DNA from: Candidatus Omnitrophota bacterium
GTDB lineage: Bacteria; Omnitrophota; Gorgyraeia; Gorgyraeales; Gorgyraeaceae
DNA: 64,000 nt
Direction of reading: 5' to 3'
Assembly (NCBI GenBank): GCA_043814965.1
Contig: JBDRJN010000017.1
Coordinates: 6,038 to 70,037, forward strand
Positions 20,065 to 57,569 of the stretch are shown here, piece after piece. How positions within the stretch are numbered: position 1 is the stretch's first letter; each line of letters begins with the position of its first letter. Under the pieces are notes generated by a model that had not been told where the DNA came from, ran no database searches, and saw only the letters and a program-made list of their open reading frames with translations. Position numbers and translations under genes: made by a program.

Positions 20065-20072
20065 ACATAGAA

Positions 20073-24743: not shown

Positions 24744-26783
24744 ATGGCAAATATAAAAGAACTTGCAAAAATACCAGAACGTTTGTCAGGCGGCCACAGG
24801 CTCTGCGCAGGATGTGGCGCTTCTATAGTAGTGAGACAAGTTTTGATGGGTACAAAAGACTACGTAGTGGCTGGTTCAGCCACAGGCTGCCTGGAAGTAG
24901 CAACAACTATATATCCATATACAGCATGGAAGATACCTTTTATACATAATGCTTTTGAAAATTCCGCAGCTACTATGAGCGGAGTAGAGACAGCTTATAG
25001 GGCGTTAAAGAAAAAAGGCAAGATCACAAAAGAGATAAAGTTTGTTGCATTTGGCGGCGATGGCGGGACCTATGATATAGGGCTTCAGTCGCTTTCAGGC
25101 GCGCTCGAAAGAGGCCATAAGTTCGTATATGTATGCTACAACAACGAAGCTTATATGAATTGCTTAAGCCTTTCTTCTATGATTATGACAGAGTCAGGGC
25201 TTAAAAAGATAACAGAAGTAAAGACAGGAGATATGGTCTATGCTTTTGATCAAAAGACGCACAAATTAGCCTTAAAAAAATGCTCGGGTGTTTTTGATAA
25301 TGGAGTAAAAGATGTATATGAACTTTCTACCCTTCACCATTCCATAAAGGCCACTTCTAACCATCCGTTTTTGGTTTTAAAAAGAAATGGTATAGGCAAA
25401 ACCAGCCAGCTTGTGTGGAAGAAACTGGAAGAAATGAAAGCTGGAGATGAAATAGTGGCATTGAAGGGCATGAACGGTTATTCTAAGTCTATGATGTTTG
25501 ATTTTTCAAAAGTAAAAAAAGGCGACTACAAGGTAAATAGGCTGAATGATATCAATATTCCCAAATCCTCCAGTAAGGAGCTTATGAAGTACTTGGGGCT
25601 CTATATAGGCGATGGGTGGATAAGAGAGAAAAGGGGCGAGGTTGGTTTTGCTCTTCCTGAAAAGACAGTTGGCAGAAGAGAACTTATAAAAATCCATGCA
25701 GAGGTGTTCGGAAGTAAGTTAAATGCTTCAGACAAGGTCTATATATATGCTAATTCCGTAAATCTGGGGAATTTTATAAAGAGCTTGGGAGTCGGTATAG
25801 GCGCCAAAAATAAGACTATTCCCGGATGGGCGTTTACTTTACCCTTAGAAGAGAAGCAAGCTCTTGTAGAAGGCCTGATGCTTTCAGACGGGTATAAATG
25901 CGGGAATAGCTGGAGATATGTATCGGTGAGCGAAGATTTACTTAAAAGTTTAAGGCTCTTTTTGCAGACAATGGGAAAAAGAGTAGGCAAAATCCATTGG
26001 CAGACGAAGAAAAAAGGCATGGTCTGCGTAAGCAGGAAACTCTTAAAAGATTCAAAATATGGCTATATTTGTTTTAGCGATAGAGAAAAATGGAATACAA
26101 AGAAATATCCTGACCAGTATAAATATCAGAATTTTTTGATGGGCAATGAATATTTTGAGATGGAAAAGGTAAGAAGCATAAAGTTGATAGGCAAAGAACC
26201 AACACTGGATCTAAGGGTAGAAGGAGAGCATAATTTTATAGCTGATGGAATAGTGGTGCACAATACAGGCATTCAGCGTTCAGGAGCTACTCCTAAAGGT
26301 GCTTCTACGACTACAGCTCCTGCTGGTAAAGTAAGCATAGGCAAGGTTCAATTTAGAAAAGACCTTACTTCAATAGTTGCTGCACATAGAATTCCTTATA
26401 TAGCACAGGCTTCAGCATCTCACTGGAATGACCTGGTGACAAAAGCTGAAAAAGCGTTTAAAGCAGACGGCCCAGCATTCTTAAACATAATATCAATGTG
26501 CCATAGGGGCTGGAGATTCCCGCAGGAAGATACTATAGCTGTATCAAAGCTTGCAGTAGAGACAGGCTATTGGCCATTAATAGAAGTCGAGAACGGGATC
26601 TGGAAATTCACCTATAAACCTAAAGAAAGGAAGCCTGTCATTGAATTCCTAAAAATTCAAGGCAGATTTAAACATCTATTTAAAGAAGAAAATAAGCATA
26701 TCCTGGACGAAATCCAAAAAGAAGTTGATGATAATTATGCTCGCTTGGAAAGAATGTGCGAAGCGAGTTGTAAAGTTGCGTAA
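24744..26783 (+). CDS. porB: pyruvate:ferredoxin oxidoreductase beta subunit (TPP-binding) interrupted in frame by a 368-aa intein
   Basis: CxxC...C cluster and GDG...NN TPP motif. The extein sequence YNNEAYMN|TGIQRSG is split by a Cys-start/His-Asn-end insert; without the insert the protein is 311 aa. Confidence 0.85.
25161..26264 (+). mobile_element. intein with LAGLIDADG homing-endonuclease domain inside PorB
   Basis: Begins CLSLSS (block A), contains TSNHPF (block B TxxH) and two LAGLIDADG motifs ([22 protein letters not shown]), ends [16 protein letters not shown] with +1 Thr. Confidence 0.8.
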
Positions 26784-26787
26784 TATA

Positions 26788-26824
26788 GTTTAAAAGTTTA
26801 AAGGTCTAAAAGCCTAAAAGTTTT
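26788..26824. repeat. left imperfect inverted repeat flanking the four-helix-bundle gene
   Basis: GTTTAAAAGTTTAAAGGTCTAAAAGCCTAAAAGTTTT; its partner at 27208-27245 is the reverse complement with few changes. Confidence 0.6.
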
Positions 26825-27193
26825 ATGACCGATGACAAAGATTTTAGTTTTGAAAGATTAGAAGTATATAAAAAAGCGATCAGTTTTATAAATTCAGTTT
26901 TTAGCCTTTGTAATAAAATTCCTTATAAATTACAGAGCTCTCTTGGTGACCAGATGAGAAGAGCTTCTTTATCTATAGCAAATAATATTGCCGAAGGCAG
27001 TGACAAAAGGTTTCCTAAGGATAAAAAAAGATTTTACGATCATTCGCTTGATTCAGCCAGAGAATGCATTCCTATGTTTACAGTTTGTCTGAATCAGGGT
27101 ATAATTACAAGTAATATACATGATAAATTGAGAGACGAATGTATCGTGATCTGTAAGATGTTAAGACGTTTGATACAATCAGTCCCAGAATAA
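26825..27193 (+). CDS. four-helix-bundle protein (family encoded in 23S rRNA intervening sequences, TIGR02436/PF05635-like)
   Basis: Characteristic ..YKKAISF...LGDQMRRASLSIANNIAEG....DHSLDSARECI.. pattern. Confidence 0.7.
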   Translation: MTDDKDFSFERLEVYKKAISFINSVFSLCNKIPYKLQSSLGDQMRRASLSIANNIAEGSDKRFPKDKKRFYDHSLDSARECIPMFTVCLNQGIITSNIHDKLRDECIVICKMLRRLIQSVPE

Positions 27194-27207
27194 TTTTTGT
27201 TCTTTAT

Positions 27208-27245
27208 AACTTTTAAACTTTAAACTTTTAGACTTTTAAACTAAA
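27208..27245. repeat. right imperfect inverted repeat flanking the four-helix-bundle gene
   Basis: AACTTTTAAACTTTAAACTTTTAGACTTTTAAACTAAA. Confidence 0.6.
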
Positions 27246-27250
27246 TACAC

Positions 27251-27552
27251 TCCCCTGTAGCTCAGCTGGTAGAGCGCGTGGCTGTTGAGCGGCGAAGCGA
27301 GCGCAAAACGTTTCGCACAAAGTTAGCAGCCTCTAATGGAAACATTAGAGTGGGAAAGCGGGTAAATTCAGGGAAAGCCTATAGAGTAGGTCAATCCTGA
27401 GCCAAGTCCGCCTAGGCGGAAAGGTGCAGAGACTAGACACTCGCTGCCTAAAGCTGGAAACAGCTATGGCAAAGGTATAGTCCGACTCTCCGAGTAATCG
27501 GAGTCAGATCGTAACCACGTTGTCCGAGGTTCGAGTCCTCGCGGGGGAGCCA
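27251..27552 (+). tRNA. tRNA-Asn (anticodon GTT) interrupted by a group I intron in the anticodon loop
   Basis: Exon 1 is 27251-27285 (acceptor TCCCCTG, D-arm GCTCAGCTGGTAGAGC, anticodon stem CGTGG, loop CTGT) and exon 2 is 27512-27552 (TAA, CCACG, T-arm CGAGG/CCTCG, acceptor CGGGGGA, G, CCA). The spliced anticodon loop CTGTTAA equals the E. coli tRNA-Asn loop. Confidence 0.75.
27286..27511 (+). ncRNA. group I self-splicing intron (226 nt) in tRNA-Asn
   Basis: Matches to all four conserved core elements: P AAATTCAGGGAAAGCC, Q AATCCTGAGCC, R GTGCAGAGACTAGACA, S AAGGTATAGTCC. The 5' exon ends in U and the intron ends in G. Confidence 0.75.
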
Positions 27553-27681
27553 ATCGAATGAAAGCCCTTTTTCGGAGATAATGGAAAAGGGCTTTCTTGT
27601 TGCTAGACATAGGGTTCAGTCTTTTAAAATAAAGTTCGAGCCGAGAATTTTCAAAATTTCTCTTTTAAGAGAGAGGTTTCC
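27553..27681. repeat. X element, copy 1, immediately 3' of the tRNA-Asn CCA; it contains the last ~22 codons of the recombinase gene
   Basis: Its reverse complement recurs at 29120-29248 with about 95% identity, and a same-strand variant recurs at 40614-40680. Confidence 0.8.
27561..27595. terminator. bidirectional hairpin terminator between tRNA-Asn and the convergent recombinase gene
   Basis: AAAGCCCTTTTTC-loop-GAAAAGGGCTTT stem. Confidence 0.5.
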
Positions 27682-27848
27682 TTGCCAAGCAATAGAACCT
27701 GCTTGATTACAAGTAGTTATGAAGTTTTTGGAGGGTTCGAGCCATCCGCCGCTTGTTTGATCTATCTCGCCAAGCCGCTCTTGTAATTCCTTCTTATCGT
27801 TAAGTAGCTTAGCTTTCTTTTTCTGATATTCTTCCTGCGAGATTTCTT
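27610..27848. repeat. ~240-bp direct repeat, copy A (X element plus 3' coding end of the recombinase gene)
   Basis: About 90% identical to 40614-40850, in the same orientation. Confidence 0.8.
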
Positions 27849-28986
27849 TAGAGATATAAAGATCAATAAGGCGTTCAATCTTAATGTCAAATTCCTTTAA
27901 CTTGTCATGGGCTTGGCGAGATAGAGAAGAGGAGGCTTTGCTTTCTCCGTTGGATAACTCGCCCAATCTATTCATCATTTTATCTTTAGTTTCATTATCT
28001 ATAAAAATTTTAAGGATAGCTTTATTTATCTGCGAAAGCAAAGCCTCTTCTCTAAGAAACTTTTGCGAGCATTTGACTATCTTCTTAGTGCATCGGTAAT
28101 AGGTATGGCCTTTATGAATCTCTGCTGTGATATACGCTCCACACTCGCCGCACTTAATAAGGCCTGTAAAAGCAAACTTAATCGCGCCTTTTTTGATAGG
28201 CTTAGCCTTTCGCTTCAAAACTTCCTGGACAGTATCAAAAAGTTTCTTAGAGACAAGCGGCGGGTGATTTGCTTCAAAAAGTTCGCCCTTAAATCTCATA
28301 ACTCCATAATAAAAAGGATTTCGTAAGATTGATGCGAGCGAACTTTTTCGGACAGGCTTGCCTGCCTTGCCTAAAATGCCCCATCTATGAATTTCTCTAA
28401 GTAGCTCCTCAAGCGAATAGTTGCCTCCTGCATATAACTCAAACATCTTTCGGACGAATGGCGCTTTCTCTGGGTCAGGCAAGATAGAGTGATCCTTAAA
28501 GTCATTGATATACCCAAGCGGAGCCCATCCAGGCCATTCGCCTCGGCGTAGTTTCTCACGTAATCCACGCTTCACATTTTCAGAAAGATTATCTATGTAG
28601 TATTTACTCTGCCCGAATGCGATAGAGAGCATAAACTTACCTTGAGCAGAGTTATCAAAGCGATATGTAGGGAATCTTAAGTCTATGATCTTACCAGTAT
28701 CTACGAGATAGATAATCTTTCCGCCGTCTATACTATTGCGGGCAAGCCTGTCCGGGTGCCATGCCAAAATTCCCTCGGCAATATTAGCTTCTATTTGCTT
28801 AAGCATGAAAGAGAAGATAGGCCGTCCCGGCTCTTTAGCTGTCTTAGCTTCAGTAAACTCATCAACTATCTCTAAAGACTCTTTTTTTGCGAATTCCCGC
28901 AACTCATTTATTTGCGATTCAATAGATAAGACTTGCCTATCTTCTTCATCCGTAGATTTCCTGGCGTATAAGTAGAATTTTGGCAT
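27616..28986 (-). CDS. large serine recombinase (resolvase/invertase catalytic domain, recombinase domain, zinc ribbon, coiled coil)
   Basis: N-terminal YARKSTDEED...SIESQ catalytic serine motif, central recombinase domain, CGECG...YYRC zinc ribbon, coiled-coil C-terminus. Confidence 0.85.
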   Translation of the reverse strand: MPKFYLYARKSTDEEDRQVLSIESQINELREFAKKESLEIVDEFTEAKTAKEPGRPIFSFMLKQIEANIAEGILAWHPDRLARNSIDGGKIIYLVDTGKIIDLRFPTYRFDNSAQGKFMLSIAFGQSKYYIDNLSENVKRGLREKLRRGEWPGWAPLGYINDFKDHSILPDPEKAPFVRKMFELYAGGNYSLEELLREIHRWGILGKAGKPVRKSSLASILRNPFYYGVMRFKGELFEANHPPLVSKKLFDTVQEVLKRKAKPIKKGAIKFAFTGLIKCGECGAYITAEIHKGHTYYRCTKKIVKCSQKFLREEALLSQINKAILKIFIDNETKDKMMNRLGELSNGESKASSSLSRQAHDKLKEFDIKIERLIDLYISKEISQEEYQKKKAKLLNDKKELQERLGEIDQTSGGWLEPSKNFITTCNQAGSIAWQGNLSLKREILKILGSNFILKD

Positions 28987-29119
28987 GGCATTAACCCTCC
29001 AAAAACTTTCTGTTGTCCCTCGGCTACGCTCGGGACTCCTTTCAGTCGCTTGGCAAAGTAAATTTTTTTGAGATCCATATAAATCTCAAAAATATTTCCT
29101 TATTCGCCGTAGGCGAAAA

Positions 29120-29248
29120 GGAAACCTCTCTCTTAAAAGAGATTTTTTAAAAATTCTCGGCTCGAACTTTATTTTAAAAGACCGAACCCTATGTCTAGCA
29201 ACAAGAAAGCCCTTTTCCATTATCTCCGAAAAAGGGCTTTCATTCGAT
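29120..29248. repeat. X element, copy 2, inverted, upstream of the recombinase start
   Basis: Reverse complement of 27553-27681. Confidence 0.8.
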
Positions 29249-29557
29249 TGGCTCTCTCTTTCGAACGATATACGAAACTATTTCAAGGGTTCCCTTGAAA
29301 TAGCGCCTTAAAGTTTTCAACGAATGGCTCGGCTGTGTGCTGAGGCGCCGCCCACCGCCTCAGCACACAGTGCCTTACTCGCTTGATAAAAGATGAGGTA
29401 GGTAAGGCGCTATCCTGCCTAACTCATACCTAATACGCCGTGGGGCAGGATGCCGAGCCAGCTCAAGCTCCCCGCACAAAAAGCAAATTTTGCCCCCACC
29501 CAAAATTTGCTTTTTGTGATGAAAAGAACATATATTGATTTATTTGGCTTGGGATAT
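29249..29557. repeat. left arm of a long imperfect inverted repeat bracketing the XRE and giant gene cargo; its outer end is a tRNA-3'-end-like sequence (minus strand ...TTCGAAAGAGAGAGCCA)
   Basis: The right arm at 40389-40546 is its reverse complement, apart from a ~150-nt internal insert that is itself a hairpin (GTGTGCTGAGG...CCTCAGCACAC). The arm also contains the perfect palindrome CACAAAAAGCAAATTTTG-CCCCCAC-CCAAAATTTGCTTTTTGTG. Confidence 0.75.
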
Positions 29558-29680
29558 TAGTTTGATTATCAAATAGACTATAGTTATGATTATCCCTGCT
29601 ATAATCCGTTCCAAATAAAACTTAAAATATCTATCCATGCTATAATGATACTTATAGTCATCATAAATGTCAAGATAAAA

Positions 29681-29713
29681 TGCTACTTATAGTATCGTAG
29701 ACAATAAGTAGCA
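29681..29713 (+). promoter_or_regulatory. candidate operator: perfect inverted repeat TGCTACTTAT-N13-ATAAGTAGCA upstream of the XRE gene
   Basis: 10-bp perfect inverted repeat arms; TATAAT-like hexamers lie at about 29620 and 29640. Confidence 0.45.
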
Positions 29714-29733
29714 AAAATGAGATAATTCATAGT

Positions 29734-29943
29734 ATGAAAAGCAATATTCTTAGACAATTTGGGGCTAAAGTTAAAAAACTTAGGAAAGCTAAGGGTTGGT
29801 CTCAAGAAGAACTTGCTGATAGATGCGGTCTTCATAGGACTTATATAGGCAGCATAGAAAGAAGTGAACGAAATGTTAGTTTAATTAACATCGAAAAAAT
29901 TGCAAAAGCGCTAGGTGCACCAGTTGGAAATTTGGTAGCGTAA
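29734..29943 (+). CDS. XRE-family helix-turn-helix transcriptional regulator
   Basis: Cro/C1-type HTH (QEELADRCGLHRTYIGSIERSERNVSLINIEKIAKAL). Confidence 0.8.
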   Translation: MKSNILRQFGAKVKKLRKAKGWSQEELADRCGLHRTYIGSIERSERNVSLINIEKIAKALGAPVGNLVA

Positions 29944-29954
29944 AAAAATTTTCC

Positions 29955-29983
29955 TTGCAAATCCTAACTTTTTTTGGTATAAT
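29955..29983 (+). promoter_or_regulatory. near-consensus promoter directly upstream of the giant gene (TTGCAA-17-TGgTATAAT)
   Basis: TTGCAA at 29955-29960, a 17-nt spacer, and an extended -10 TGGTATAAT at 29975-29983, about 10 nt before the ATG at 29994. Confidence 0.55.
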
Positions 29984-29993
29984 ACGTTAACGA

Positions 29994-32900
29994 TTGAATA
30001 AGAAGTATTTTAACGCAGATGGTGTCATGGGCTATCCAAGACGCCATTTTTTTGTCTACATTATGTCAAAGTTTAAAAAACCATTAATTAGTTTACTAAT
30101 ATCCGCTATATTTATTATTAATAATACAGCATATGCTATAGATCTGCCTGCAAAATCCTGCCTAAGAATCAATCACATGACAGACAAGGAGAATAAGGAT
30201 GAGGAAATAGGGAGGATCAAAGATGTGTATAAAGCGTTAGAGAACAACACAATTGAATCAGAAAAAAATATTCCAAGAGATAATAAAGGTAGATTCTCTG
30301 AAGAGGAAGGTAAAAATGCTATAGATATGGCCATGTTGCTTAGTGAAAGTAAATATGTAAATATACCATTTACAGTTAAAGAATATCATGAGATTTGGAA
30401 AGTAAAATATCCTGATAAGACAATCTCAACCAGTACAATATATAATGATTTAAACAAGGCTATAGAAAAAGGCTTGGTTGTAAAATCAAACAAAAGTTCT
30501 TATTATGAGTTAACCCAAAGAGCTAAGTCCCTTTTTTCTGAAGGATCTGATAATAAAGAGGAAAGATCACAAAGAAATATTCTATACAACGTTTCCGAAG
30601 CCAAGCTTTATACCAAGGCTGAAGATGGAACGCTTCGGAAAAATAAAAAATTTTATTTACCAGGAGAAGATAAAATATTTTTATCTTTAGTAAATAAACC
30701 TTTGAATAAAAAAGAAGACATTCTTGACAGGCAATTTGCCGTTACGTCTTTAATAGATGCGGGCAGTGAAAAAATAGAAGAATTAAAAGACAGCTCTTCT
30801 AGTGTATATCAATGGATAAATACCTATAAATATTTATGGGAAATAGATGAAAATGAAAGATATGGGGCTTTTGGATCAGGCAAATCTGCAAAGAGAAGGA
30901 TAGAGCAGTTTATAGATGAAGGCATAATTAATAAAGATACTTTGTCAGGCGATATTAAAAAAGCAGGAAAATCTGCGATAAAAGACGAAATGTCAAAGAA
31001 AGATGAGGCATTGCTAAAAATTAGGACAATAGATTACTATAAAGAAGAAGCGCAGGAGTTGGTAGATAACATAAGAAAGATTGCTGGCCAGGATGGAAAA
31101 GTCTTAAATGCTTTAGCGGATAATTTGCAGCGTAACATAGACAAGACAAATGCCCCAAGCCTCCTAGGTTTTATTGAATTGGTCGAAAAAAATAAGTGGG
31201 ATGCAATAAGTGATTTAATGCATAATTTAGAAAGCTTGGAATATTCAGTAGAAGAGATCAATGCGTTTTTGACATTTTCTGCCCTAGTTATTAATGATGA
31301 ATATGCAAAAGTAACTTATGATGATACAAAACCAGCTAGCTATAAAAATGGATGGCTATTTATAGAAAAGAAAAAAGCCGAAGAGCATTATTGGAGCGAT
31401 GAAGAAAAAGAGAAAGATCAGGTATTAAACGATAGCCCAGAAGATATACCAGTTGTTGTTTTAACAGGAAGCAATATGTCCGGTAAATCCCATTATCTAA
31501 AGCAGAATTATTTTATACAGCTTTTAGGCCAGTCTTTCGGATATGTCCCGGCTAAAGAGGCAAATTTACGTATATATGACCATATTGCCTATTTGGACAG
31601 GCCCTCTACTGACAGCTATAATGACTTAAGCGCATTTGGCAAAGAAATAGAAAACTGGAAACCTGTCATAAAAGATATATCAAGCAATTCCTTAGTATTT
31701 GTAGATGAAGGGTATTCTACGACTTCTCCTGAGGATCAGGCTAAGTTCTCAAAAGCAACCGCCGAATTTATTAAAGATAATAATGCACATATCATGATGG
31801 CTTCGCATAACGAAGAATTTATTAATACATTAAATGGGGCCGAAGGAACTAAATTTTATCATTTCGAGATAAATGTTGACGGCAATACGGTTGATTTTAC
31901 TAATAGATTGCGTGATGGCCCCGGAGATTCAAGTGCTTTAGATGTAGCAAAAGCACTTGGGCTGCCGCAAAGCATCTTAGACCGTTCCCAGAATTTTCTT
32001 GATGGAAAGATAGAGCCGGTAGAACCAAATCCAAATCACCTACCTAAAAATATTACCAGATACACAGAAGAAGAAAGAGAAGGATTAAAAAAGGAAACAG
32101 GAAATTTCCTTGCATTTTTCCCTTATGAAAATGTATTAGATATTAAGCCTGGTTACGATGGAAAAAATAAGCTGGAATTAAAATATAAGTCTCCTAATAA
32201 GATAGACCATTATGGTTATGGTTTTGGCAGTAATGATAAGCTAAAAGAAATTTATAACTTTGAGCCTATATTCAAACTTTTTAGCCAGGATAGGGATTTC
32301 AGCAATTTTTCCCCGATACTTAGTACAGATCTTGGGAAAATAAAAAACCCTAATTATATAACAAAGATTCAAAGCATATTAAAGCTCGGTTCTTCGAATG
32401 ATTCAAAGGAAATATTAGAGCGTCAAAAGATGTTTTCTGAATTAATATCAAAACCAGAACTTAGAGAATCCATGAGAGAAGATCTTTTGGGTATAGGTAA
32501 TCTAATGTATTCACTTGTGTTTGCAAGACAGTATATAAGTTTCGAAAGCTTTAATTTACAGTTTTTGGAGAGTGCTATACCTGATTTTAGGAATAGGATA
32601 GTTAAAGATGAAAATAAAGATGTATCTATGGATCTATTCCTGGGCATATTGGATATGAACTTAAAATTAACAGGCCTCGCGTATGAAGATATAGGAGTTT
32701 CGGAAGAAATCAAAAAATTGCAAAATTTACTTTCTATAGAATCTGAACTTGCGCAATTGTATGAAGAGGACCACAGGTATTGGATAGAAAATAAAGACAA
32801 TATGTCATCAGAGGGCTATAAGTCACAAGAAAAAGAATTCAAGAATAAAGTCACAGCTCTTGCAAAGAAATTTACTGAAATTACAGGTGAAAAACTCGTA

Positions 32901-35900
32901 AAGGAAGACAAATTTTATGTAACAGATATTAGGGAATCCCTAAAAAAGATATGCAAAGATATAAACGAAAAGGCTCAAGAAAAAATACCACCTGTCTCTC
33001 TTTTTGATGAAAATATCTGGCCTATATTAAGAGAAGAGACAGACAGGCTTTATCCTTTTGTTGATAATGAATTATCGCGCACTGTATTCTCCGCACCGCC
33101 TCATGTCATAGGTTTTTATTATATAAAAGCTTTATTGACAGATGAGAATTTGGTTGAAAAGCTTGTAGGGCAGCTAAAAAGTACGGATTCAGTCCATCTT
33201 CATCAATTTGCTAATTATTTTGATAAGATTTTTAATGTCTGGTTCGGAGAATTTAAGACAGGCATTGATTATTTAAAACATAAGAATGATTTACCAGGGA
33301 AAATAGCTGAAGTTGAAAAAAATATAAAAGAAGAAAAGGCATACCAAAAAAGCCTCATAAAAGGCAGTGAAGAAATAACCAGAATATTACAGGATAATCC
33401 GGATTTCCTGCAAAAAAGAATAGATGATTGCGAGGCGCAAATAAAAAATAAAGAAAAAGATATCGTGAATTATTCGGAGATTGTTGAGAGAAATCCGGGT
33501 GATGGCTATTGGGTTAATTTATTAAAAGAATCTAAGGATGCAAAGTTAAATTTAGAAAAAGAACTCAAAGATCTTCCTTTAGTTCAAAAGGCTGTAAATG
33601 GAGAAATATCTTTTGGCGATAATATAGACCAGGATTATCTTTTTAAACTGGTTCATGATGATTTTGTGGGTAGTAAGATCAGAAACTTATCCAGTAAATT
33701 AAGCATGTTGAAAGGCGAGCTAGATAGTAATCCTTTTGAAAGAAGAAGCGGTTTTGATGAAATACTAAATGAAAGTTTTAAGATGCATGTTTTATTGACT
33801 ATGGCATATTTAATGGATTATCAGGGATGGAAACCCGTTGAATTTACAAACGATCTTACTATAGATATGCAAGATGCCTGGAATCTTGTGAAGACAAAGG
33901 ATGAACAGGTGCCTTTAGATTTTACAATGAACGACAATGAAAAGGTAAAGATCTTTTCAGGGTCTAATATGTCAGGTAAGACCTTTGCTGAAAAGACCCT
34001 TATATGGAATGCTTTGTCAGGGCTAACTACAGGTTATGCTCCTAATGGGGGAATGAAAATGCCAATATTCGACCATGTAGTTTATATTGATAGAGTAACT
34101 GCGCAAATAGATAGAAAACTAAGCAGCTTTGGCCATGAAATAGAATACTGGAAAACATTCCTTAATGCTATAGATGATGATGACCTGGCTTTAGTTATTA
34201 TAGATGAGATGGGTTCAACTACGTCTCCAAAATATCAATCAGCATTATCTTATGCTATGTCAGAAGAGATGCTTGAAAAGGGGCATTTTCTTGTAGTTGC
34301 TTCGCATAATCATGCCTATATTGATGCATTTGAGAATACAAACGATAAATATAGTAATACCTATAATCTACTTACCAGGATAGATGAAGAAGGAAAAGCA
34401 GTGTTTGATTATAAGCTGGTTCCAGGGCATGAACCAAGTAATAGCATTGCGGTAGCAAAGACTATGGGATTTGATAAGATGGTTGGTTATATAGAAGAAG
34501 ATAATAAGGCCGATGAGTTGCTTATCCCAATATTGGCTGAACCGTATATTAATCATGACAAAGCAGTTAAGGATATGGTTAATCCTGGTAATAAGGATTT
34601 TGTAGGCCTATATGGAGGCGCAGGAGCAGACGTATCAAATGTTCTATATTCAACAAATGCTACTAAGGTTTATTTTGTTGATACAAGAAGTGTTTTCCTG
34701 GATAAACTTAAATACTATTGGCAGAATACCAAGCTTTCGCAAGAAGAAGAAAATCTATACAAGGAATATTCTAAGGAAAAATATTTTGCAGGATTCGGAG
34801 ATGTTGGGAAACTTATTGGAGATTTGGAGCTATATTTAACAGGTGAGTTAAAATCAATAGGTGTTACATCTAAAGACATAATAGATATTAATAATGACGA
34901 ATCAGGTAATCTTCGTATTAAATTTAACTGGGCATATGATAAAGATTCTCCTAAGAAAGAACGTGAAATTATCTTTATGCAGGATGATATTACTAAACCT
35001 TCTGACAAATTAATTGAATCAATAAATGGTAAGATAGATTTTTATTACCAAAGGGCAGCGTTGGACATCCCAATGAAATATAATGTTTTTATAAAGAAGA
35101 TAGGGGATTGCATGAAACCAAATGGTTTTATGATAACGGATAATAATTCCCCAAGAGGCGATTTTGGTTTTTACTATATAACACCTAAGCTAACAGATTT
35201 CAAGTTATTAGAAGACTCTAAAGATATGAAGACTAGCGCAAAAGAAATAGAGAACTTAAGGCGTGGGTATATGGGTCCTTATGGCTGGGCAGTTTCTATT
35301 ATGCAGAAGAAAGCAGAAAGCTTGGTTTCCAGCGAACCCACAGAAACTTCCCCTGGTCGCGGAACGGGAACAAATAACCCCACCCAGCCTACGAAAAACA
35401 TCCCTCTTGACAAGAAAGATATAGGCGCAAAGCTTGATGGTATAAAGCCAAAAAATATAAGTTCAATTAATCGAGACGCCAAGTCCGCTGAAGTACTAAA
35501 ATTCCTGGGAGACATAGATTCAGCTCCGAGTGATAAAAAAGCGCAGCTTGTGGTTGATTATATTTTAAACTTAAGCGGAATGGCTTTTAAAACAAAAAGT
35601 TTCCCTGTTTCAAAAGAAAGGCTTGATCAAATAGAAGATAGGCAATCTAAATTTTTAGAACGCTATTCAAAAAAACATGGCCTTTCACCGTCACTCAAAA
35701 AATATATCAACATTCAATATAGATCACTTACAAAGATATCAGAGGATAAATATGCAACGATAGCAAGTATTAATAGGATAGACTATTTTCTAGTGCTCTC
35801 AAAAGATGAATCAGGCATAGAGGATTTTAAACTTATATCCATGGATTCTAAAGATGAAATAAAGAAATATCAAAAAATTGCCAATAACTTTGTGCGAAAA

Positions 35901-38900
35901 ATTCTGCCAGGCGATAAAAATAAGAAGAAAAGAGAAAAAGTCGAGGACGACATTTCGAGTTTCTTTAATGAGATTAAAAGAAAAGCTAATAGAGATGAAG
36001 AATTTGATAGATTCTTCAAAGATACAGACCATCCTGACTTACCATTTAGTTATGCATTAGGCAGCCCTGCATTAAAAGTGCCGGAACTTGAATCAGCCAA
36101 AGAGCCTATCCAGTTGGAGGCTAAAACCGAAGAAAGAAAGTATAAGACTATCGCTGAAATAACTGATGAAGTTTTATTAAAACCAATTGAATCATTGATT
36201 AAAATAGATAAAGATGGCAACCCAAGGGCTTTAACGCAGGATGAGATCCTTTTAGAATATAAAAAAGGAGCGCTTGAAGCACTTAGGACAAAGGAAGGCT
36301 ATGAAGATGAATCTGAATTAAAGCAGTGGATTTCGCTTATATTGAAAGCAATAGAATATAATGATATGGAATTTAATCATATAGAAAAGAAAGAAGGATG
36401 GTTTCTCCTGGATGAAATATCTTTTCCTAAATTAAGAGAAAGCGCCAGAAAAAATATATTAACTGCTGCTACGATCCCAAGAGATGGAAAAACCTGGGTA
36501 TTTATAAAAGAAAATATGAACCTTTATCAGGCTGCATATGCTTTAACAAAACTCTCAGGAGTTGAACAAAAAATGACAATAGTTGGTTTAGGAGAAAAAT
36601 GTACCGAAACATTAAGATCCTCAATAAGAACTGTGATCCAAGAGGCGTATAAAGAAACCAAACCTATTGAGTCCAGCGAAATAAAAGATGAAGAAAAAAA
36701 CCTTGATTTTCATAATAGATTTTTACAAAAGCTCCATTATTCTTATAAAGTAGATCCAGAGTTCAGGAAAGCAATAGATGAACTACGCGAAAAAGTTTTA
36801 AGCCAGATACATCCACAAGAAAGTGAAGCTTTTAGATTTATTACAGATAATGAAATAACCAGCTTTGCTTTGGAATTTGCCGCGCGAATAGGAGAAACCC
36901 CTCTTATAGCTGACCCATATACCAGTTGGGGTATTATAGATAATGAGAAAGACGAGCCCCATTATTTTATAAACTATTCTGAACTTTATGCAAAACATAA
37001 AAAAGCTATTGATAAATACACGCATTATTCACATTACGAATTTATTATTGATGATGGCTCGTGGAGTGGGCTTAAGGTGAAAGGCGGGATGAATTATCTA
37101 TATAATACTCTTCGCAATATTTTTACATACAATGAAATAGTAGATTTTCTTAAAAGTGAAACAAATAAAGGGCTTATCAACCCAATAGTAAAACCCTATG
37201 AAACAGAACAGTTTTTCCTTCCTAATATTGATTTTACAAGGCCAAGCGATGAGGATGCCTTTGATAATATGAATATTGATCAGCTTTTCCAGGCAGTAGA
37301 AAATATGCCTAAAGAAGAATGGGAGAAATATAAAGTCAATATATTAAACCGATATTCCTATCTTGCCCGTAAAGGAGAAATAGAGCCAGTTTTTTTTATG
37401 AAACATATCAGCGCATTAGCAAAAAAAGATGTTGATATTTTACGGGATAAACACGCAAGCTGGGCTAGCGGCCATAAATATTATTTTGATAGGGCTGAAA
37501 TAACAAGGGCAATCATTGAGACTGTTTTAAGGTCTTCTAAATCAAGTTTTTTAAATGATGATTTCCTTTTAGAATATTATTCCCAGGCTGATGAAGTAAA
37601 AGATGACGGTACATTTGTTTACTATGAAACAAAGGATTACAAAAAAACTGACGAACAAATTTCACAAGTAAATGCTATCAATCGTCTTGCCAATGGTTAT
37701 ATGGGTGAAGGCCCTATATCCAGATATCCATTATATGCATTGTCTATGATCATGAATATTTCTCCTGAACGCATAGGCCCAAAAACTATGAATTTATTTG
37801 TTGCTATGGCAGAAGCAGGCAGGGATAGATATAAGCTATATATAGGAGACGATCGTGGCTGGCTAGAAGATAGCTATGGCGTAACCCCTGTTTTTGATAT
37901 ACCAATCAGAGCTTTTGACTATCACCCTGAATATTATTCTAAACTTTTGGTTGAATCTAAAATAACCCCGGATATTTTAACTTTTCTCATCAGGCCGGAG
38001 ACTGCCCCAGGGGATAATATAGGTCTGTTTTCTTCTCTGCGAGAACCAGGAGCAGAAGAAAGGGAATACAAAAGCTTTCTTTCAGGTGAAATAATAAAAG
38101 GTTTGGTTACAGGGAATTCAGTAGAGGGCAATCAACTCAAATTATTAAAAGCTATTATCAATGATTTTTCAGCAGTTGCCAACAATACTATTCTTGAACA
38201 CTGGAGAAAGTTTAGTAAAGATGACTTAAATTCACTTTTAGGGCTTAAAACAAAAGTAGATAGTTCCATACTTGAAAAAATGGAAACCATTTTTAGCAAA
38301 GAAGGATTAGGCAATAGGGTAGTTGCTTTGTTTTTAGCAATGTATCCTGATTTTAATATAGAAACTGCCAAGGATTTGGACAAGCTTTTAAAAGATGACT
38401 CAGTTCAAACTACATTTGGCATATTAAAAGCTATTAAAGATAAATTATGGACAATAGAAGAAATCAGGGCTCTTTATAGGGCTAATCTATGGAGTTTTAC
38501 CTCAGCTAATGTAAGGCATACTAATTTAAAACAAGTGCTTAATTTATCAGAAGAAGATAAGTCAAAGCTTTTCATAGTATTATCGGGTAAAAAATTATTG
38601 CCTCAGAATATTTTCGATATTTATCCTTTAAATATTCCAAAGGATCATGCGCTTTACGATAAATATAGCCATGAATTAAAAACTTACTCAATGAGTTATT
38701 CAAGTTTTACCGGAGCGATGGAAATGGTTGCAGATTCTAAGGAACTAGAAGAAAGCGTTAAAGGTAGAGTTACGCATAGGTCAAGGCTCTTATTTAATGA
38801 CCTTGGAGCTATCTTGAAATTGCCCAGGAAAGACCTGTTGAGAAAAGTTGAACTATTGGAAAAATTCGAGACGAACAAAGTTGAATTAGACAATACTGCT

Positions 38901-40355
38901 TACAGGCTCCTATTAGTAGTCCCAGAAGAACATTTTGATGAATTATTCGGTATTTTGGAAGAGAATTTTGATAGCCTTAAAAATCTGAAACAAACAAAGA
39001 AAGAAATAACTGCCAAATTTCAGGATATAGTTAAATTAAACCCTGAATTAAAGGATCTTTCGCAGAAAACCATTGTCCGATGGGCTAGTGAGCAAATGGG
39101 CATAACTTCGCGTAAAAGGCTTACAGAACCAGGCGCAAAAGACAATATTGCCAGCGCTTTTCGAGATAAGCTGAAAGCTGATGATCTAGGTAGAAAGGTA
39201 AATAGCGGGGAAGCGAGCGAGGAAGAAAATAAAAAATATATGAACCTGATAGCTGTAAATAAGTTATTATCAGCGATCGTTGATAATGTGAAACTATACA
39301 AATCCTGGCTTTCAGAGATACCAGATGCAGAGACTGACCCCAGCAAAATGTTGCCAGGCAAAGTCTTAATCGAACCCAATCAAACTACAGAAACCTCCCC
39401 TGGTCCGCGATCGGGATTGGTAGAAAACACCATAGAAAATTCTGAATCAGAAGAATCAAAGATCCAGACTCAGATTAGTGAATTTTTAAATATTACACGT
39501 GAAATCAATAGAAGCGATTCTAAACAAAAAGTTAATTATGTATTTGATAAGGTAGGCCCAAATATCGACACTATTTTAAGAGGCCATCTTTTAGATGAAG
39601 GTATTTCAGCTATTAGAAGAGAAATAACATATGACTCTAAAGATCTAGAACTCTTTGAAACATCAAAATATTTCTTAGAGCTTCTTATAGAAAATTCTAC
39701 AGTGTTTTCATCAGAAGATGCCTTAGCCGGCAGAATACAATTATTATCGAAGCAGTATAGTATGGTAGAAAGAGTTGTAAAAGAATGCGATGATCTTTTA
39801 AATAATCCTGCACTTATAAGTGAGTTTGCAGATGCAGTAAAAGGTTTTAAGTTGGATCTAGAGAAACAAAAAAATAAGATGACAAATATTATAGATTACT
39901 TAAAGGCTAAAGACTTTTTTGAAGAAGGAGAAAATCCATCCGAAGTCTTAGCTGATATTGAGATAGATCATGTAGTTTTAGATGTAATGGATGGCATAGG
40001 GCGTCCTAATAGTTTTGTAGGCATATTAGACGCTCTTTTGATAAAAGGAAACATTAAATCAATAACTGTATTTAGCCGTTCTCAAGATAGTTTAAATATT
40101 TTTATAGATAGAATAGGGCTTGAGAAATTTAATGAACTTAAAGAAAAAGGCATTAATTTTGTCGTAGAAAAAAAACTATGGGAAGAAGGCAATAATTCTG
40201 AAGCTAATCTTTGGGCGAAAGTAGGAAATGAATTGTTCAATATAGATAGGCATATGTTTGGCGATAAAATAGGAATAAATAGGGTAACGATATTAAATGT
40301 TAAAGATAAACTATCAGAAGGAAAAATGCTAATAGAACATCTAAATAATATGTAA
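29994..40355 (+). CDS. giant 3453-aa multidomain protein with two MutS-family (domain V) ABC-ATPase modules and an N-terminal signal/anchor segment
   Basis: Uninterrupted 10.4-kb ORF. The first module at aa ~485-655 has Walker A GSNMSGKS, Walker B LVFVDEGYSTTSP, and the MutS C-terminal motif GPGDSSALDVAKALGLPQSIL. The second at aa ~1320-1490 has GSNMSGKT, LVIIDEMGSTTSP and SNSIAVAKTMGF. MutS-core-like helices precede module 2. A possible Rossmann GxGxG (LYGGAGADVS) lies at aa ~1540, with ETSPG(R/P) linkers. An alternative start at the Met at 30063 (MSKFKKPLISLLISAIFII) would give a signal peptide. Confidence 0.8.
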   Translation: MNKKYFNADGVMGYPRRHFFVYIMSKFKKPLISLLISAIFIINNTAYAIDLPAKSCLRINHMTDKENKDEEIGRIKDVYKALENNTIESEKNIPRDNKGRFSEEEGKNAIDMAMLLSESKYVNIPFTVKEYHEIWKVKYPDKTISTSTIYNDLNKAIEKGLVVKSNKSSYYELTQRAKSLFSEGSDNKEERSQRNILYNVSEAKLYTKAEDGTLRKNKKFYLPGEDKIFLSLVNKPLNKKEDILDRQFAVTSLIDAGSEKIEELKDSSSSVYQWINTYKYLWEIDENERYGAFGSGKSAKRRIEQFIDEGIINKDTLSGDIKKAGKSAIKDEMSKKDEALLKIRTIDYYKEEAQELVDNIRKIAGQDGKVLNALADNLQRNIDKTNAPSLLGFIELVEKNKWDAISDLMHNLESLEYSVEEINAFLTFSALVINDEYAKVTYDDTKPASYKNGWLFIEKKKAEEHYWSDEEKEKDQVLNDSPEDIPVVVLTGSNMSGKSHYLKQNYFIQLLGQSFGYVPAKEANLRIYDHIAYLDRPSTDSYNDLSAFGKEIENWKPVIKDISSNSLVFVDEGYSTTSPEDQAKFSKATAEFIKDNNAHIMMASHNEEFINTLNGAEGTKFYHFEINVDGNTVDFTNRLRDGPGDSSALDVAKALGLPQSILDRSQNFLDGKIEPVEPNPNHLPKNITRYTEEEREGLKKETGNFLAFFPYENVLDIKPGYDGKNKLELKYKSPNKIDHYGYGFGSNDKLKEIYNFEPIFKLFSQDRDFSNFSPILSTDLGKIKNPNYITKIQSILKLGSSNDSKEILERQKMFSELISKPELRESMREDLLGIGNLMYSLVFARQYISFESFNLQFLESAIPDFRNRIVKDENKDVSMDLFLGILDMNLKLTGLAYEDIGVSEEIKKLQNLLSIESELAQLYEEDHRYWIENKDNMSSEGYKSQEKEFKNKVTALAKKFTEITGEKLVKEDKFYVTDIRESLKKICKDINEKAQEKIPPVSLFDENIWPILREETDRLYPFVDNELSRTVFSAPPHVIGFYYIKALLTDENLVEKLVGQLKSTDSVHLHQFANYFDKIFNVWFGEFKTGIDYLKHKNDLPGKIAEVEKNIKEEKAYQKSLIKGSEEITRILQDNPDFLQKRIDDCEAQIKNKEKDIVNYSEIVERNPGDGYWVNLLKESKDAKLNLEKELKDLPLVQKAVNGEISFGDNIDQDYLFKLVHDDFVGSKIRNLSSKLSMLKGELDSNPFERRSGFDEILNESFKMHVLLTMAYLMDYQGWKPVEFTNDLTIDMQDAWNLVKTKDEQVPLDFTMNDNEKVKIFSGSNMSGKTFAEKTLIWNALSGLTTGYAPNGGMKMPIFDHVVYIDRVTAQIDRKLSSFGHEIEYWKTFLNAIDDDDLALVIIDEMGSTTSPKYQSALSYAMSEEMLEKGHFLVVASHNHAYIDAFENTNDKYSNTYNLLTRIDEEGKAVFDYKLVPGHEPSNSIAVAKTMGFDKMVGYIEEDNKADELLIPILAEPYINHDKAVKDMVNPGNKDFVGLYGGAGADVSNVLYSTNATKVYFVDTRSVFLDKLKYYWQNTKLSQEEENLYKEYSKEKYFAGFGDVGKLIGDLELYLTGELKSIGVTSKDIIDINNDESGNLRIKFNWAYDKDSPKKEREIIFMQDDITKPSDKLIESINGKIDFYYQRAALDIPMKYNVFIKKIGDCMKPNGFMITDNNSPRGDFGFYYITPKLTDFKLLEDSKDMKTSAKEIENLRRGYMGPYGWAVSIMQKKAESLVSSEPTETSPGRGTGTNNPTQPTKNIPLDKKDIGAKLDGIKPKNISSINRDAKSAEVLKFLGDIDSAPSDKKAQLVVDYILNLSGMAFKTKSFPVSKERLDQIEDRQSKFLERYSKKHGLSPSLKKYINIQYRSLTKISEDKYATIASINRIDYFLVLSKDESGIEDFKLISMDSKDEIKKYQKIANNFVRKILPGDKNKKKREKVEDDISSFFNEIKRKANRDEEFDRFFKDTDHPDLPFSYALGSPALKVPELESAKEPIQLEAKTEERKYKTIAEITDEVLLKPIESLIKIDKDGNPRALTQDEILLEYKKGALEALRTKEGYEDESELKQWISLILKAIEYNDMEFNHIEKKEGWFLLDEISFPKLRESARKNILTAATIPRDGKTWVFIKENMNLYQAAYALTKLSGVEQKMTIVGLGEKCTETLRSSIRTVIQEAYKETKPIESSEIKDEEKNLDFHNRFLQKLHYSYKVDPEFRKAIDELREKVLSQIHPQESEAFRFITDNEITSFALEFAARIGETPLIADPYTSWGIIDNEKDEPHYFINYSELYAKHKKAIDKYTHYSHYEFIIDDGSWSGLKVKGGMNYLYNTLRNIFTYNEIVDFLKSETNKGLINPIVKPYETEQFFLPNIDFTRPSDEDAFDNMNIDQLFQAVENMPKEEWEKYKVNILNRYSYLARKGEIEPVFFMKHISALAKKDVDILRDKHASWASGHKYYFDRAEITRAIIETVLRSSKSSFLNDDFLLEYYSQADEVKDDGTFVYYETKDYKKTDEQISQVNAINRLANGYMGEGPISRYPLYALSMIMNISPERIGPKTMNLFVAMAEAGRDRYKLYIGDDRGWLEDSYGVTPVFDIPIRAFDYHPEYYSKLLVESKITPDILTFLIRPETAPGDNIGLFSSLREPGAEEREYKSFLSGEIIKGLVTGNSVEGNQLKLLKAIINDFSAVANNTILEHWRKFSKDDLNSLLGLKTKVDSSILEKMETIFSKEGLGNRVVALFLAMYPDFNIETAKDLDKLLKDDSVQTTFGILKAIKDKLWTIEEIRALYRANLWSFTSANVRHTNLKQVLNLSEEDKSKLFIVLSGKKLLPQNIFDIYPLNIPKDHALYDKYSHELKTYSMSYSSFTGAMEMVADSKELEESVKGRVTHRSRLLFNDLGAILKLPRKDLLRKVELLEKFETNKVELDNTAYRLLLVVPEEHFDELFGILEENFDSLKNLKQTKKEITAKFQDIVKLNPELKDLSQKTIVRWASEQMGITSRKRLTEPGAKDNIASAFRDKLKADDLGRKVNSGEASEEENKKYMNLIAVNKLLSAIVDNVKLYKSWLSEIPDAETDPSKMLPGKVLIEPNQTTETSPGPRSGLVENTIENSESEESKIQTQISEFLNITREINRSDSKQKVNYVFDKVGPNIDTILRGHLLDEGISAIRREITYDSKDLELFETSKYFLELLIENSTVFSSEDALAGRIQLLSKQYSMVERVVKECDDLLNNPALISEFADAVKGFKLDLEKQKNKMTNIIDYLKAKDFFEEGENPSEVLADIEIDHVVLDVMDGIGRPNSFVGILDALLIKGNIKSITVFSRSQDSLNIFIDRIGLEKFNELKEKGINFVVEKKLWEEGNNSEANLWAKVGNELFNIDRHMFGDKIGINRVTILNVKDKLSEGKMLIEHLNNM

Positions 40356-40388
40356 CTTTTCACTTTTTTATCTCTTTATTATAATCTC

Positions 40389-40546
40389 GTATCCCAAGCC
40401 AAATAAATCAATATATGTTCTTTTCATCACAAAAAGCAAATTTTGGGTGGGGGCAGCCGCCACAGATGTCTGCCGAGCCATTCGTTGAAAATTTCATGGC
40501 TTTATTTCAAGGGAACCCTTGAAATACTTTCGTATCTCGTCCGAAA
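40389..40546. repeat. right arm of the long inverted repeat, ending in the tRNA-3'-like ...GAAAGAGAGAGCCA
   Basis: Reverse complement of parts of 29249-29557. Confidence 0.75.
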
Positions 40547-40613
40547 GAGAGAGCCAGTCAACACAGGGGCTTATTTTTACGACGAGTTCGTAAGGGTAAG
40601 CCCTTTTTATTAT

Positions 40614-40850
40614 TAGGGTTCGGTCTTTTAAAATAAAGTTCGAGCCGAGAATTTTCAAAATTTCTCTTTTAAGAGAGAGGTTTCCTTGCCAAGCAATAGA
40701 ACCTGCTTCGTTACAAGTAGTTATGAAGTTTTTGGAGGGTTCGAGCCATCCGCCGCTTGATTTAGCGAGCTCGCCAAGTCGCTCCTGTAAGTCTTTCTTA
40801 TCATTGAGTAATTTAGCCTTCTTTTTCTGATATTCTTCCTGTGAAATCTC
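40614..40850. repeat. direct repeat copy B: X-element variant plus a truncated 3' fragment of a recombinase gene (pseudogene remnant, minus strand)
   Basis: About 90% identity to 27610-27848; no intact ORF. Confidence 0.75.
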
Positions 40851-57208: not shown

Positions 57209-57300
57209 AATTCAAAAATAAATTTTCTAAAAAAAGGGATTTATAATTTTAAATTTTTATATGTAATTTTGATATTTAATCTTTAATATTTGATTTTATT

Positions 57301-57567: not shown

Positions 57568-57569
57568 AT

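Follow-up and report, generated by a model that had tools for sequence, protein, structure and literature searches.

Gene content of the locus

The subject of this study is a short segment of the genome of a Candidatus Omnitrophota bacterium in which an intein in porB, a four-helix-bundle (4HB) cassette, a group I intron in tRNA-Asn(GUU) and a large serine recombinase (LSR) element follow one another. The segment lies in a stretch of 64,000 nt (GenBank assembly GCA_043814965.1, contig JBDRJN010000017.1, positions 6,038 to 70,037), which is called the window below. Based on the comparison of this window with related loci, we argue that it is quite likely to hold a true cluster of four selfish elements that are independent of one another, each in a sequence-specific target of its own within porB/tRNA-Asn(GUU). 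Read from 5' to 3', the genes are tRNA-Ser(GCU), a small GIY-YIG open reading frame (ORF), dnaX, recR, porG, porD, porA and porB, followed by the 4HB ORF, tRNA-Asn, the recombinase gene, an XRE-type regulator, a giant ORF, a major facilitator superfamily (MFS) transporter and, further on, phosphoenolpyruvate carboxykinase (PEPCK). In the initial annotation of this DNA, four classes of selfish element had been recognised from the letters alone, and all four exist where it placed them (Table 1). Its description of the neighbourhood as otherwise housekeeping was borne out for the 64-kb window, with a single small GIY-YIG ORF as the sole exception, and gene scans of the window found no further intein, intron, recombinase or transposase outside 24.7-40.9 kb. 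The end of the segment, at 40850, coincides with the end of a 237-nt direct repeat (D1) of the recombinase 3' end.

The comparison set comprised 80 species-representative loci anchored on PorA; loci of relatives are denoted by L numbers. PorA of the window is at most 82% identical to its homologues in Omnitrophota metagenome-assembled genomes (MAGs), and no genome of the same species was among the relatives compared. The upstream synteny dnaX-recR-porGDAB is kept in the relatives, and in most Omnitrophota relatives tRNA-Asn lies directly 3' of porB, after a spacer of 11-30 nt. Judged by this synteny, the adjacency of porB and tRNA-Asn, in this order, is ancestral in Omnitrophota.

Table 1. Features of the element cluster with their coordinates in the window.
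Feature	Position	Strand	Evidence or remarks
PorB precursor ORF, 679 aa	24744-26783	+	NCBIfam PorB match in two pieces split by the intein
PorB N-extein, aa 1-139	24744-25160	+	Ends in thiamine pyrophosphate (TPP)-binding motif GDG...NNEAYMN; Pfam TPP_enzyme_C, NCBIfam PorB
Class-1 intein, 368 aa, with LAGLIDADG homing-endonuclease domain	25161-26264	+	Pfam Intein_splicing 1.5e-15; NCBIfam intein N- and C-terminal models
PorB C-extein, aa 508-679 (172 aa)	26265-26783	+	tblastn, 77-89% identity to relatives
4HB cassette	26787-27241	+	ORF 26825-27193; in porB/tRNA-Asn spacer
tRNA-Asn(GUU) exon 1	27251-27285	+	Ends at anticodon U35; aligned to intronless tRNA-Asn of L009, L011 and L026
Group I intron, 226 nt, no ORF	27286-27511	+	RF00028; boundaries from relatives without the ambiguous T
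tRNA-Asn exon 2, CCA encoded	27512-27552	+	Last 6 nt (27547-27552), GAGCCA, are the core of the recombinase element (attL)
Junction S1, tRNA - core - Z	core 27547-27552		
Proximal arm Z	27547-27683	.	Core, bidirectional terminator hairpin and last 68 nt of recombinase gene
LSR, 456 aa	27616-28986	-	Pfam Resolvase 3e-21, Recombinase 2e-18, Zn_ribbon_recom 3e-9
Distal inverted copy of arm Z	29118-29254	.	Ends in inverted core TGGCTC, 29249-29254
Junction S2, P(L) - core - Z, inverted	core 29249-29254		
P(L) arm, inverted copy	29255-29563	-	Pseudo-T-arm (…GTTTCGTATATCGTTCGAAAGAGA + core) and structured element 29326-29458; repeats I2/I4 against 40383-40559
XRE-type helix-turn-helix (HTH) protein, 69 aa	29734-29943	+	Pfam HTH_3 6e-18; PADLOC Control_protein 8e-27
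Giant ORF, 3453 aa from TTG (protein record 3392 aa)	29994-40355	+	Two MutS-domain-V ATPase modules
P(L) arm, direct copy, attR side	40383-40556	+	Ends in core GAGCCA, 40551-40556; without the 130-nt structured insert
Junction S3, P(L) - core - Y	core 40551-40556		
Older-element remnant	40557-40850	-	Y-type arm and last 76 codons of a second recombinase, truncated upstream; repeat D1

The PorB intein

The intein is inserted directly after NNEAYMN of the TPP-binding motif. The N-extein is 88-99% identical (tblastn) to the N-terminal part of the relatives' PorB, which runs directly into the C-extein, and the two exteins are adjacent without a gap in more than 50 intein-less homologues, which fixes the intein between them. 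The splicing residues are present in the translation, with C140 as Cys1 (CLSLSS), TSNH in block B, VVHN at the C-terminus and Thr+1, as are two LAGLIDADG motifs with acidic residues, LGLYIGDGW and EGLMLSDGY, for which the Pfam LAGLIDADG_3 match is weak (0.0028). From its sequence, the protein is predicted to splice and the intein to home, its target being the codons of the TPP/Mg-binding motif of PorB. In the 72 species representatives in which the site could be scored, it was occupied in 17, eight times by full-length inteins with 58-85% identity to that of the window and nine times by mini-inteins that have lost the endonuclease domain; about 53 had no intein at all, and two carried one at a second PorB site near aa 110. 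This second site (site b, after about aa 110) holds an unrelated intein in L007 (5686-6692), L016 (9573-10585) and L165 (1342-2348). Among the 19 closest relatives, five have an intein at the same site as the window (site a), and L009, which has the highest C-extein identity (89%), has none.

The arrangement is like that of known homing-endonuclease inteins in its in-frame position at a catalytic motif, in the set of Cys1, TxxH, HN with Thr+1 and two LAGLIDADG motifs, and in the occurrence of full, mini and empty alleles among relatives, as the homing-cycle model has it. It differs in its host, the beta subunit of pyruvate:ferredoxin oxidoreductase, and in the second site used in relatives. 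A database search returned more than 210 related intein clusters, almost all within PorB, from Omnitrophota, Aerophobetes, Patescibacteria, Endomicrobiia and many DPANN archaea. Some of the IMG product names read 'beta subunit/intein/homing endonuclease', and our literature search found no paper describing a PorB intein. The locus thus adds an allele in a central anaerobic enzyme that is already catalogued in databases and, as far as we could find, is not discussed in any paper. An exact-sequence look-up of the full PorB ORF returned no record. The corresponding entry in the public annotation of the source MAG, ABIG92_05095, is a 'hypothetical protein' of 532 aa and not the 679-aa PorB precursor; the intein-containing porB appears to be mis-annotated there.

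The group I intron in tRNA-Asn

The interrupted tRNA-Asn gene was missed by ARAGORN in its default mode. Rfam RF00028 matches 27276-27504 over the full length of the model with 73.3 bits, compared with a gathering score of 50 (E = 1e-16), and a search of 26700-30000 at a relaxed threshold added merely spurious miRNA-like hairpin matches. The intron lies between U35 and U36 of the anticodon, and the exons, once joined, match the intronless tRNA-Asn(GTT) of L009 with 98.7% identity over 75 nt. In P1, the exon end GGCUGU pairs with the internal guide GCAGCC, which gives a U.G pair at the 5' splice site, and the intron closes with ...GAUCG, its last base being G. From its sequence, the intron is predicted to be self-splicing.

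Across 31 loci, an intron sits at exactly U35|U36 in 21, and the gene is uninterrupted in the remaining 10. Introns of 190-260 nt have no ORF and those of 530-710 nt have one within the P1 loop, as in L012, L017 and L163, where the homologous intron carries an HNH ORF (endonuclease-family matches at 4e-28 for L017 and 9e-27 for L163). The intron of L016 keeps merely a short inverted repeat that brackets the ORF elsewhere, which is a deletion footprint, and the intron of the window is likewise a derivative without the endonuclease ORF that it once had. The coexistence of empty, endonuclease-bearing and ORF-less forms fits the prediction of the homing-cycle model. The initial annotation had also considered a donor lineage rich in homing elements. 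For introns the comparison speaks against a broad richness of this kind: in eight relatives (149 kb) the sole group I introns are those of tRNA-Asn, the 14 other tRNAs being intact.

Bacterial tRNA group I introns (IC3) are known from tRNA-Leu(UAA) and tRNA-fMet of cyanobacteria, tRNA-Ile(CAU) of Azoarcus and tRNA-Arg(CCU) of Agrobacterium. The intron of the window resembles these in its small size, its place in the anticodon loop, the formation of P1 with the anticodon stem-loop, the U.G splice site and the terminal G, and its core motifs resemble the Azoarcus/Anabaena type. Unlike them, it is hosted by tRNA-Asn(GUU) at position 35/36, and its relatives have the HNH ORF in the P1 loop. Our literature search found no paper on a group I intron in a bacterial tRNA-Asn; as far as we could find, the locus thus adds tRNA-Asn to the tRNAs that host such introns in bacteria.

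The four-helix-bundle cassette

The product of the 4HB ORF matches PF05635 (1.5e-25) and TIGR02436 (5.4e-25). The cassette is closed by the inverted repeats I7/I8 (26783-26822 and 27210-27246), its flanks being inverted arrays of 8-nt units (YYTAAAAG and the complement), and RNA folding pairs these flanks into a long closing stem (z = -3.9). The window has no rRNA, and the cassette sits between the porB stop codon and tRNA-Asn, not in a helix of 23S rRNA. No PF05635 homologue was found in 1.5 Mb of the relatives' loci, and the cassette is absent from every locus of L001-L080 that retains the porB-tRNA-Asn junction. The spacer of L016 reads TAGGTAATATAAAACTAAATACAC and is followed directly by the tRNA, and that of the window reads TAATATAG[cassette]AACTAAATACAC before the tRNA; by this alignment, L016 is an empty site for the cassette at nucleotide resolution. 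In three other relatives (L004 7837-7911, L007 7310-7383 and L017 6868-6945), an insert of about 75 nt with a GC-rich hairpin occupies the position in the porB/tRNA-Asn spacer that the cassette has in the window.

A wider search returned 71 homologues of the 4HB protein, many of them on very short contigs. All five close homologues whose context was examined (66-88% identity) lie immediately 5' of tRNA-Asn. In L162, porB with an intein is followed by the 4HB ORF and an intron-containing tRNA-Asn, and the same order is found in L165 and L166 (the site-b intein being seen in L165), with a different LSR accompanied by DUF2924 further 3' in L165. In L163, recR precedes the 4HB ORF, a tRNA-Asn with an HNH-bearing intron and an LSR that is 75% identical to that of the window; in L164, recR, the 4HB ORF and a small GIY-YIG ORF precede an intronless tRNA-Asn. 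As judged from gene order, the recR context is the ancestral neighbourhood minus the por operon. More distant homologues (50-55% identity) are part of ordinary operons and separate, for instance, a histidine kinase gene from that of its response regulator. PF05635 cassettes were seen between such genes or other co-directional genes in L170-L172 (2501-2866) and L173-L178. In most cassettes the ORF starts 35-41 nt past the upstream stop codon, and in L167-L169 the distance is 115 nt. All eight cassettes examined are enclosed by inverted repeats of 30-40 nt made of short tandem units, the sequence of which depends on the lineage; in the two of the distant cassettes that were examined, L170 and L173, the repeats are lineage-specific.

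The closest known counterpart is the intervening sequence (IVS) of 23S rRNA, which likewise encodes a PF05635 protein, has its ORF within long-stem inverted repeats and belongs to a stable-RNA transcription unit. The cassette differs from it in its place in the porB/tRNA-Asn spacer and in its flanks of tandem 8-nt units, and RNase III processing is assumed for it. We read the cassette as a promoterless ORF lodged in a transcribed spacer; by analogy with the rRNA IVS, its stem may allow it to be excised from the transcript.

The recombinase element and its family

The recombinase matches a PHROG integrase model (2e-85) and shows weak NCBIfam similarity to CcrB/XisF. Its gene is bracketed by inverted repeat I1, in which the 137 nt of arm Z are 97% complementary to 29118-29254. 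In a three-sequence alignment, the junctions S1, S2 and S3 coincide at GAGCCA, the 6 nt with which the tRNA ends. The remnant at the far end encodes a stretch 92% identical to the recombinase of the window and covers its aa 381-456 (tblastn), and the Y-type arm matches both arms of L081, whose recombinase adjoins an intron-containing tRNA-Asn. In the simplest reading of these alignments, S1 would be attL and S3 the attR-side arm of an element at 27553-40556 that integrated beside the remnant of an older relative. The attR flank of the window is that older element, which hides the host-side flank. The dyad symmetry around the core is weak (11-15 of 22 positions) and does not mark the crossover dinucleotide. 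The initial annotation had proposed the order porB-tRNA-Asn-MFS as the empty configuration; no relative has an MFS gene adjoining the tRNA, synteny breaking there in every species representative. Element-free or intronless tRNA-Asn loci exist (L009, L010, L016 and others), with a downstream synteny unlike that of the window, and neither the giant ORF nor the XRE gene was found 3' of tRNA-Asn in any of the relatives compared. In L012, the homologue of the PEPCK gene (window 44760-46640) sits only 1.3 kb 3' of tRNA-Asn, which makes the far boundary of the island uncertain.

The cargo consists of the XRE-type HTH protein, which resembles the controller (C) proteins of restriction-modification (R-M) systems, and the giant ORF, in which Pfam MutS_V matches two stretches (1.9e-40). 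The GC content of the giant ORF is 31-35%, compared with 39-43% in the flanks. An exhaustive search with its C-terminal 1200 aa found 17 relatives alone among 1.84 billion representatives, and a search with aa 1650-2650 returned no matches, low-complexity candidates probably saturating it. A role of this cargo in defence is plausible because related elements carry defence genes; between the arms of relatives we found a Dam-type methylase, GmrSD, a type IIG R-M enzyme, an Eco57I-like methylase and a cyclase of the cyclic-oligonucleotide-based anti-phage signalling system (CBASS).

A metagenome scan returned more than 540 relatives of the LSR, of which the best 80 were examined together with one viral contig (81 loci). 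The recombinase gene lies tail-to-tail with a tRNA gene, mostly for Gln and also for Asn, His, Arg, Asp, Ser, Trp and Ala, and the cores of the family members fit many different tRNAs. Inverted repeats of 80-140 nt, usually 97-100% identical, bracket the gene in 69 of the 81 loci, and most of the loci without visible repeats lack the flanking sequence required to show them. Each of the two arms terminates in the 4-9 nt that close the respective tRNA. Outside the upstream arm stands a pseudo-T-arm, a conserved motif (AAAAAGTTCGGATTTTGTTCAGGACAGA) that looks like the T-arm of a tRNA and precedes the core; in a manual alignment count, it is alike at 23 of 34 positions between the Gln type and the Asn type of the window. 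At a distance of 1.7-8 kb there is another copy of the P(L) arm, inverted, that abuts unique chromosomal DNA; this defines attR and places the crossover within CAGC (tRNA-Gln) or CCGCCAATT (tRNA-Ser). In L145 (9712-11537), a recombinase of the family is flanked by two genuine tRNA-Gln genes (CUG and UUG) in convergent orientation and does not have the usual inverted-repeat arms, which hints that the pseudo-arm may be derived from a real tRNA. About 33 loci are oriented convergently to the tRNA and one or two the opposite way, and no inversion was observed in the window. Between L082 and L085, tRNA-Gln and the flanking genes share about 71% nucleotide identity and the recombinase modules 90%, and the modules lie in opposite orientations relative to the tRNA; this comparison is evidence that the module moves horizontally and that it can be placed either way round. 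The internal, inverted attP-like site might reflect self-inversion of the Hin kind; another possibility is a nested set of modules, in which a Z-ended recombinase cassette would lie between the tRNA and a P(L)-ended cargo unit.

A structured element of about 135 nt is present upstream of the recombinase in some LSR subfamilies. Two hairpins, whose sequence varies among loci with complementarity kept, are enclosed by an invariant closing helix (GGCUCGGC/GCCGAGC), and 12 of the 33 pairs of the element are compensatory in the six sequences. The recombinase-sense strand folds better in five of the six cases, the window being the exception. The six sites (133-165 nt) are 29326-29458 in the window, 4984-5124 in L083, 4613-4757 in L088, 9570-9701 in L092, 909-1047 in L093 and 1309-1473 in L094. 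The element matches no Rfam family. In the window its sense is on the minus strand, and the distal arm copy (40383-40556) does not contain it.

Contigs often end at the inverted repeats of the LSR, which is expected because these repeats exceed the assembly k-mer. In L150 (101-1609 and 7002-8369) and L104 (94-1461 and 6309-7676), 100%-identical inverted copies of the recombinase flank the cargo. A composite-transposon architecture for these two loci was rejected, L150 being L151 plus a reversed repeat of its own end; the duplicated recombinase is probably a fold-back assembly error at the inverted repeat. The fold-back-like duplications and the frequent position of the family at contig ends would also suit an explanation of the window itself as an assembly or binning artefact, in which the contig fuses fragments of different organisms at repeats. 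We consider this extremely improbable, as the junctions of the porB intein, cassette and tRNA intron recur in the independent assemblies L162 and L165, the tRNA-Asn/recombinase junction recurs in L081 and L163, and the repeat copies of the window differ (82-97% identity, X versus Y arms) and hence are not collapsed duplicates.

Among known systems, the element can be compared with tycheposons, tRNA-anchored islands that are overwhelmingly tyrosine recombinase elements, with an LSR-bearing minority mentioned without detail (Hackl et al., bioRxiv 10.1101/2020.12.28.424599). The likenesses are an integrase beside a full-length tRNA with the cargo behind it, degenerate integrase remnants deeper in the island and integrase variants specialised for particular tRNAs, and the accretion pattern of the window, a new element beside an older remnant, is as in tycheposons. 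In contrast to them, the enzyme of the window is an LSR, the element has 4-9 nt of the tRNA in common, near-perfect inverted repeats of 80-140 nt bracket the recombinase gene, and the element contains an additional attP-like site in inverted orientation. A different likeness is offered by the serine invertase switches. In the Hin and Gin systems, the recombinase gene lies within its own invertible segment. Here, too, a serine recombinase gene lies between inverted repeats, and both orientations occur at one tRNA flank (L082 versus L085), but the enzyme is of the large integrase type, the repeats are far longer than hix or gix, and we found no evidence of an expression switch. Our literature search on LSRs, tRNAs and inverted repeats found no direct description of such elements.

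Two generalisations are suggested by the comparisons, and we put them forward jointly, as a tentative pair that may well prove wrong. The first is that PF05635 cassettes would form a general class of promoterless hitch-hikers that are bounded by inverted repeats and insert in transcribed spacers, with one subfamily dedicated to the leader of tRNA-Asn. The second is that the LSR would represent an undescribed class of modular tRNA-directed elements, in which an inverted-repeat cassette is placed in either orientation, the inverted attP-like site consists of a pseudo-T-arm and a 4-9-nt core, and the target tRNA is reset by a change of the core.

Why the elements lie together

The four insertion points (25161, about 26789, 27286 and 27552) span 2391 nt, for which the probability is about 2e-4 if four points fall at random in 64 kb; the same calculation for the whole 16.1-kb span gives about 0.06. 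The target of the intein is the TPP motif of PorB, that of the cassette the leader directly 5' of tRNA-Asn, that of the intron position 35/36 of the anticodon, and that of the recombinase element the final 4-9 nt of the tRNA. The idea of an integration hotspot in the initial annotation stands in part. The 3' end of tRNA-Asn is used by at least three LSR families (that of L015, L036 and L067, that of L165, and the type of the window, L081 and L163), and an older remnant lies at the far end of the island. A region that is permissive at large does not agree with the data, since each element sits in one recurrent target that is precise to the single nucleotide, the host genes are ancestrally adjacent, and the intein and the intron occur independently across relatives, an intein being present in five of the 21 intron-bearing and one of the 10 intronless loci (Fisher p = 0.63). 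The stacking would thus come from two favoured conserved targets being neighbours and from tRNA 3' ends accreting integrative elements, the last arrival having integrated site-specifically at the final nucleotides of the tRNA, with defence-like cargo, beside the earlier remnant of its own family.

The same closeness could have another origin, co-conversion, in which the repair of a break made by the HNH or LAGLIDADG endonuclease drags about 1-2 kb along, so that cassette, intron and intein travel as one haplotype. Four insertion points within 2.4 kb speak for it, as do the constant place of the close 4HB homologues (66-88%) directly 5' of tRNA-Asn, after porB or recR, and the full combination seen again in L162 and L165. 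We nevertheless regard it as rather unlikely. The intein and the intron are uncorrelated over the 31 loci, L010 and L014 carry the intein but no cassette (L010 has an intron as well), the cassette-bearing L164 is intronless, L009 and L011 have none of the three, and no common haplotype is more alike than the flanking genes.

Insertion polymorphism in relatives, the absence of which (with the elements dispersed and vertically inherited) had been named in the initial annotation as speaking against its hotspot reading, was found for the intein (full, mini or absent), the intron (absent, ORF-less or with HNH) and the cassette (the empty site of L016); for the recombinase island, variation in presence among relatives is indicated indirectly by sequence comparison. 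These forms bear on a further explanation, according to which intein, intron and cassette are ancient, vertically inherited and immobile passengers that have undergone losses alone, the island being the one recent arrival. It agrees with element identities close to those of the host genes, with an intron in the window that has no endonuclease ORF and with the commonness of mini-inteins. It is difficult to reconcile with the intact LAGLIDADG motifs of the intein in the window, the HNH-bearing introns of several relatives, the presence of the intein in PorB of distant bacterial phyla and DPANN archaea, and the precise empty sites among the closest relatives, such as L009 with its C-extein identity of 89%, and we judge it to be quite improbable.

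Several observations weigh against four independent elements, which is the reading we prefer. The empty site of the island was not seen, the closest genomes being those with at most 82% PorA identity, and mobility is deduced by comparison. Between the window and L162, identity is 80% for the intein, 88% for the 4HB protein and 86% for the PorB C-extein; element divergence is thus about that of the host gene, a pattern that suits both recent homing and vertical descent accompanied by losses. The combination also recurs, as intein, 4HB and intron in L162, as site-b intein, 4HB, intron and a different LSR in L165, and as 4HB, HNH-bearing intron and an LSR of the same family in L163. All three 4HB-bearing loci with sufficient flank also carry an LSR at the tRNA, which hints that the two are not independent, and nothing in these data shows by what mechanism the 4HB cassette moves.

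Under the reading of four independent elements, one tRNA gene is parasitised at three levels (leader, anticodon loop and 3' end) and its neighbouring gene carries an intein, which makes the region a compact natural example of conserved sequence attracting diverse selfish elements. The LSR family seems to be large and undescribed, its target apparently being the universal tRNA T-arm together with a short swappable core. If confirmed, it would be relevant to the engineering of site-specific integrases and to the movement of defence genes in uncultured phyla. The parts most worth pursuing are the nested-repeat and pseudo-tRNA architecture of the LSR and the 4HB subfamily linked to tRNA-Asn.

Other features of the neighbourhood

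The small GIY-YIG ORF of the window (111 aa, 19983-20318) lies directly 3' of tRNA-Ser(GCU) and overlaps the start of dnaX. L019 and L022 have similar small ORFs in the porB/tRNA-Asn spacer, and in L164 one separates the 4HB cassette from tRNA-Asn. They may represent a fifth type of selfish element that associates with tRNA genes. In L019, the spacer (2114-2542) contains the disrupted 5' half of a tRNA-Asn together with the GIY-YIG ORF and lies 5' of a functional intron-containing tRNA-Asn. Further downstream in the window, positions 56060-58910 encode two radical-SAM/SPASM proteins, one of them with a PqqD domain, which suggests a peptide-modification cluster that is unrelated to the selfish elements.

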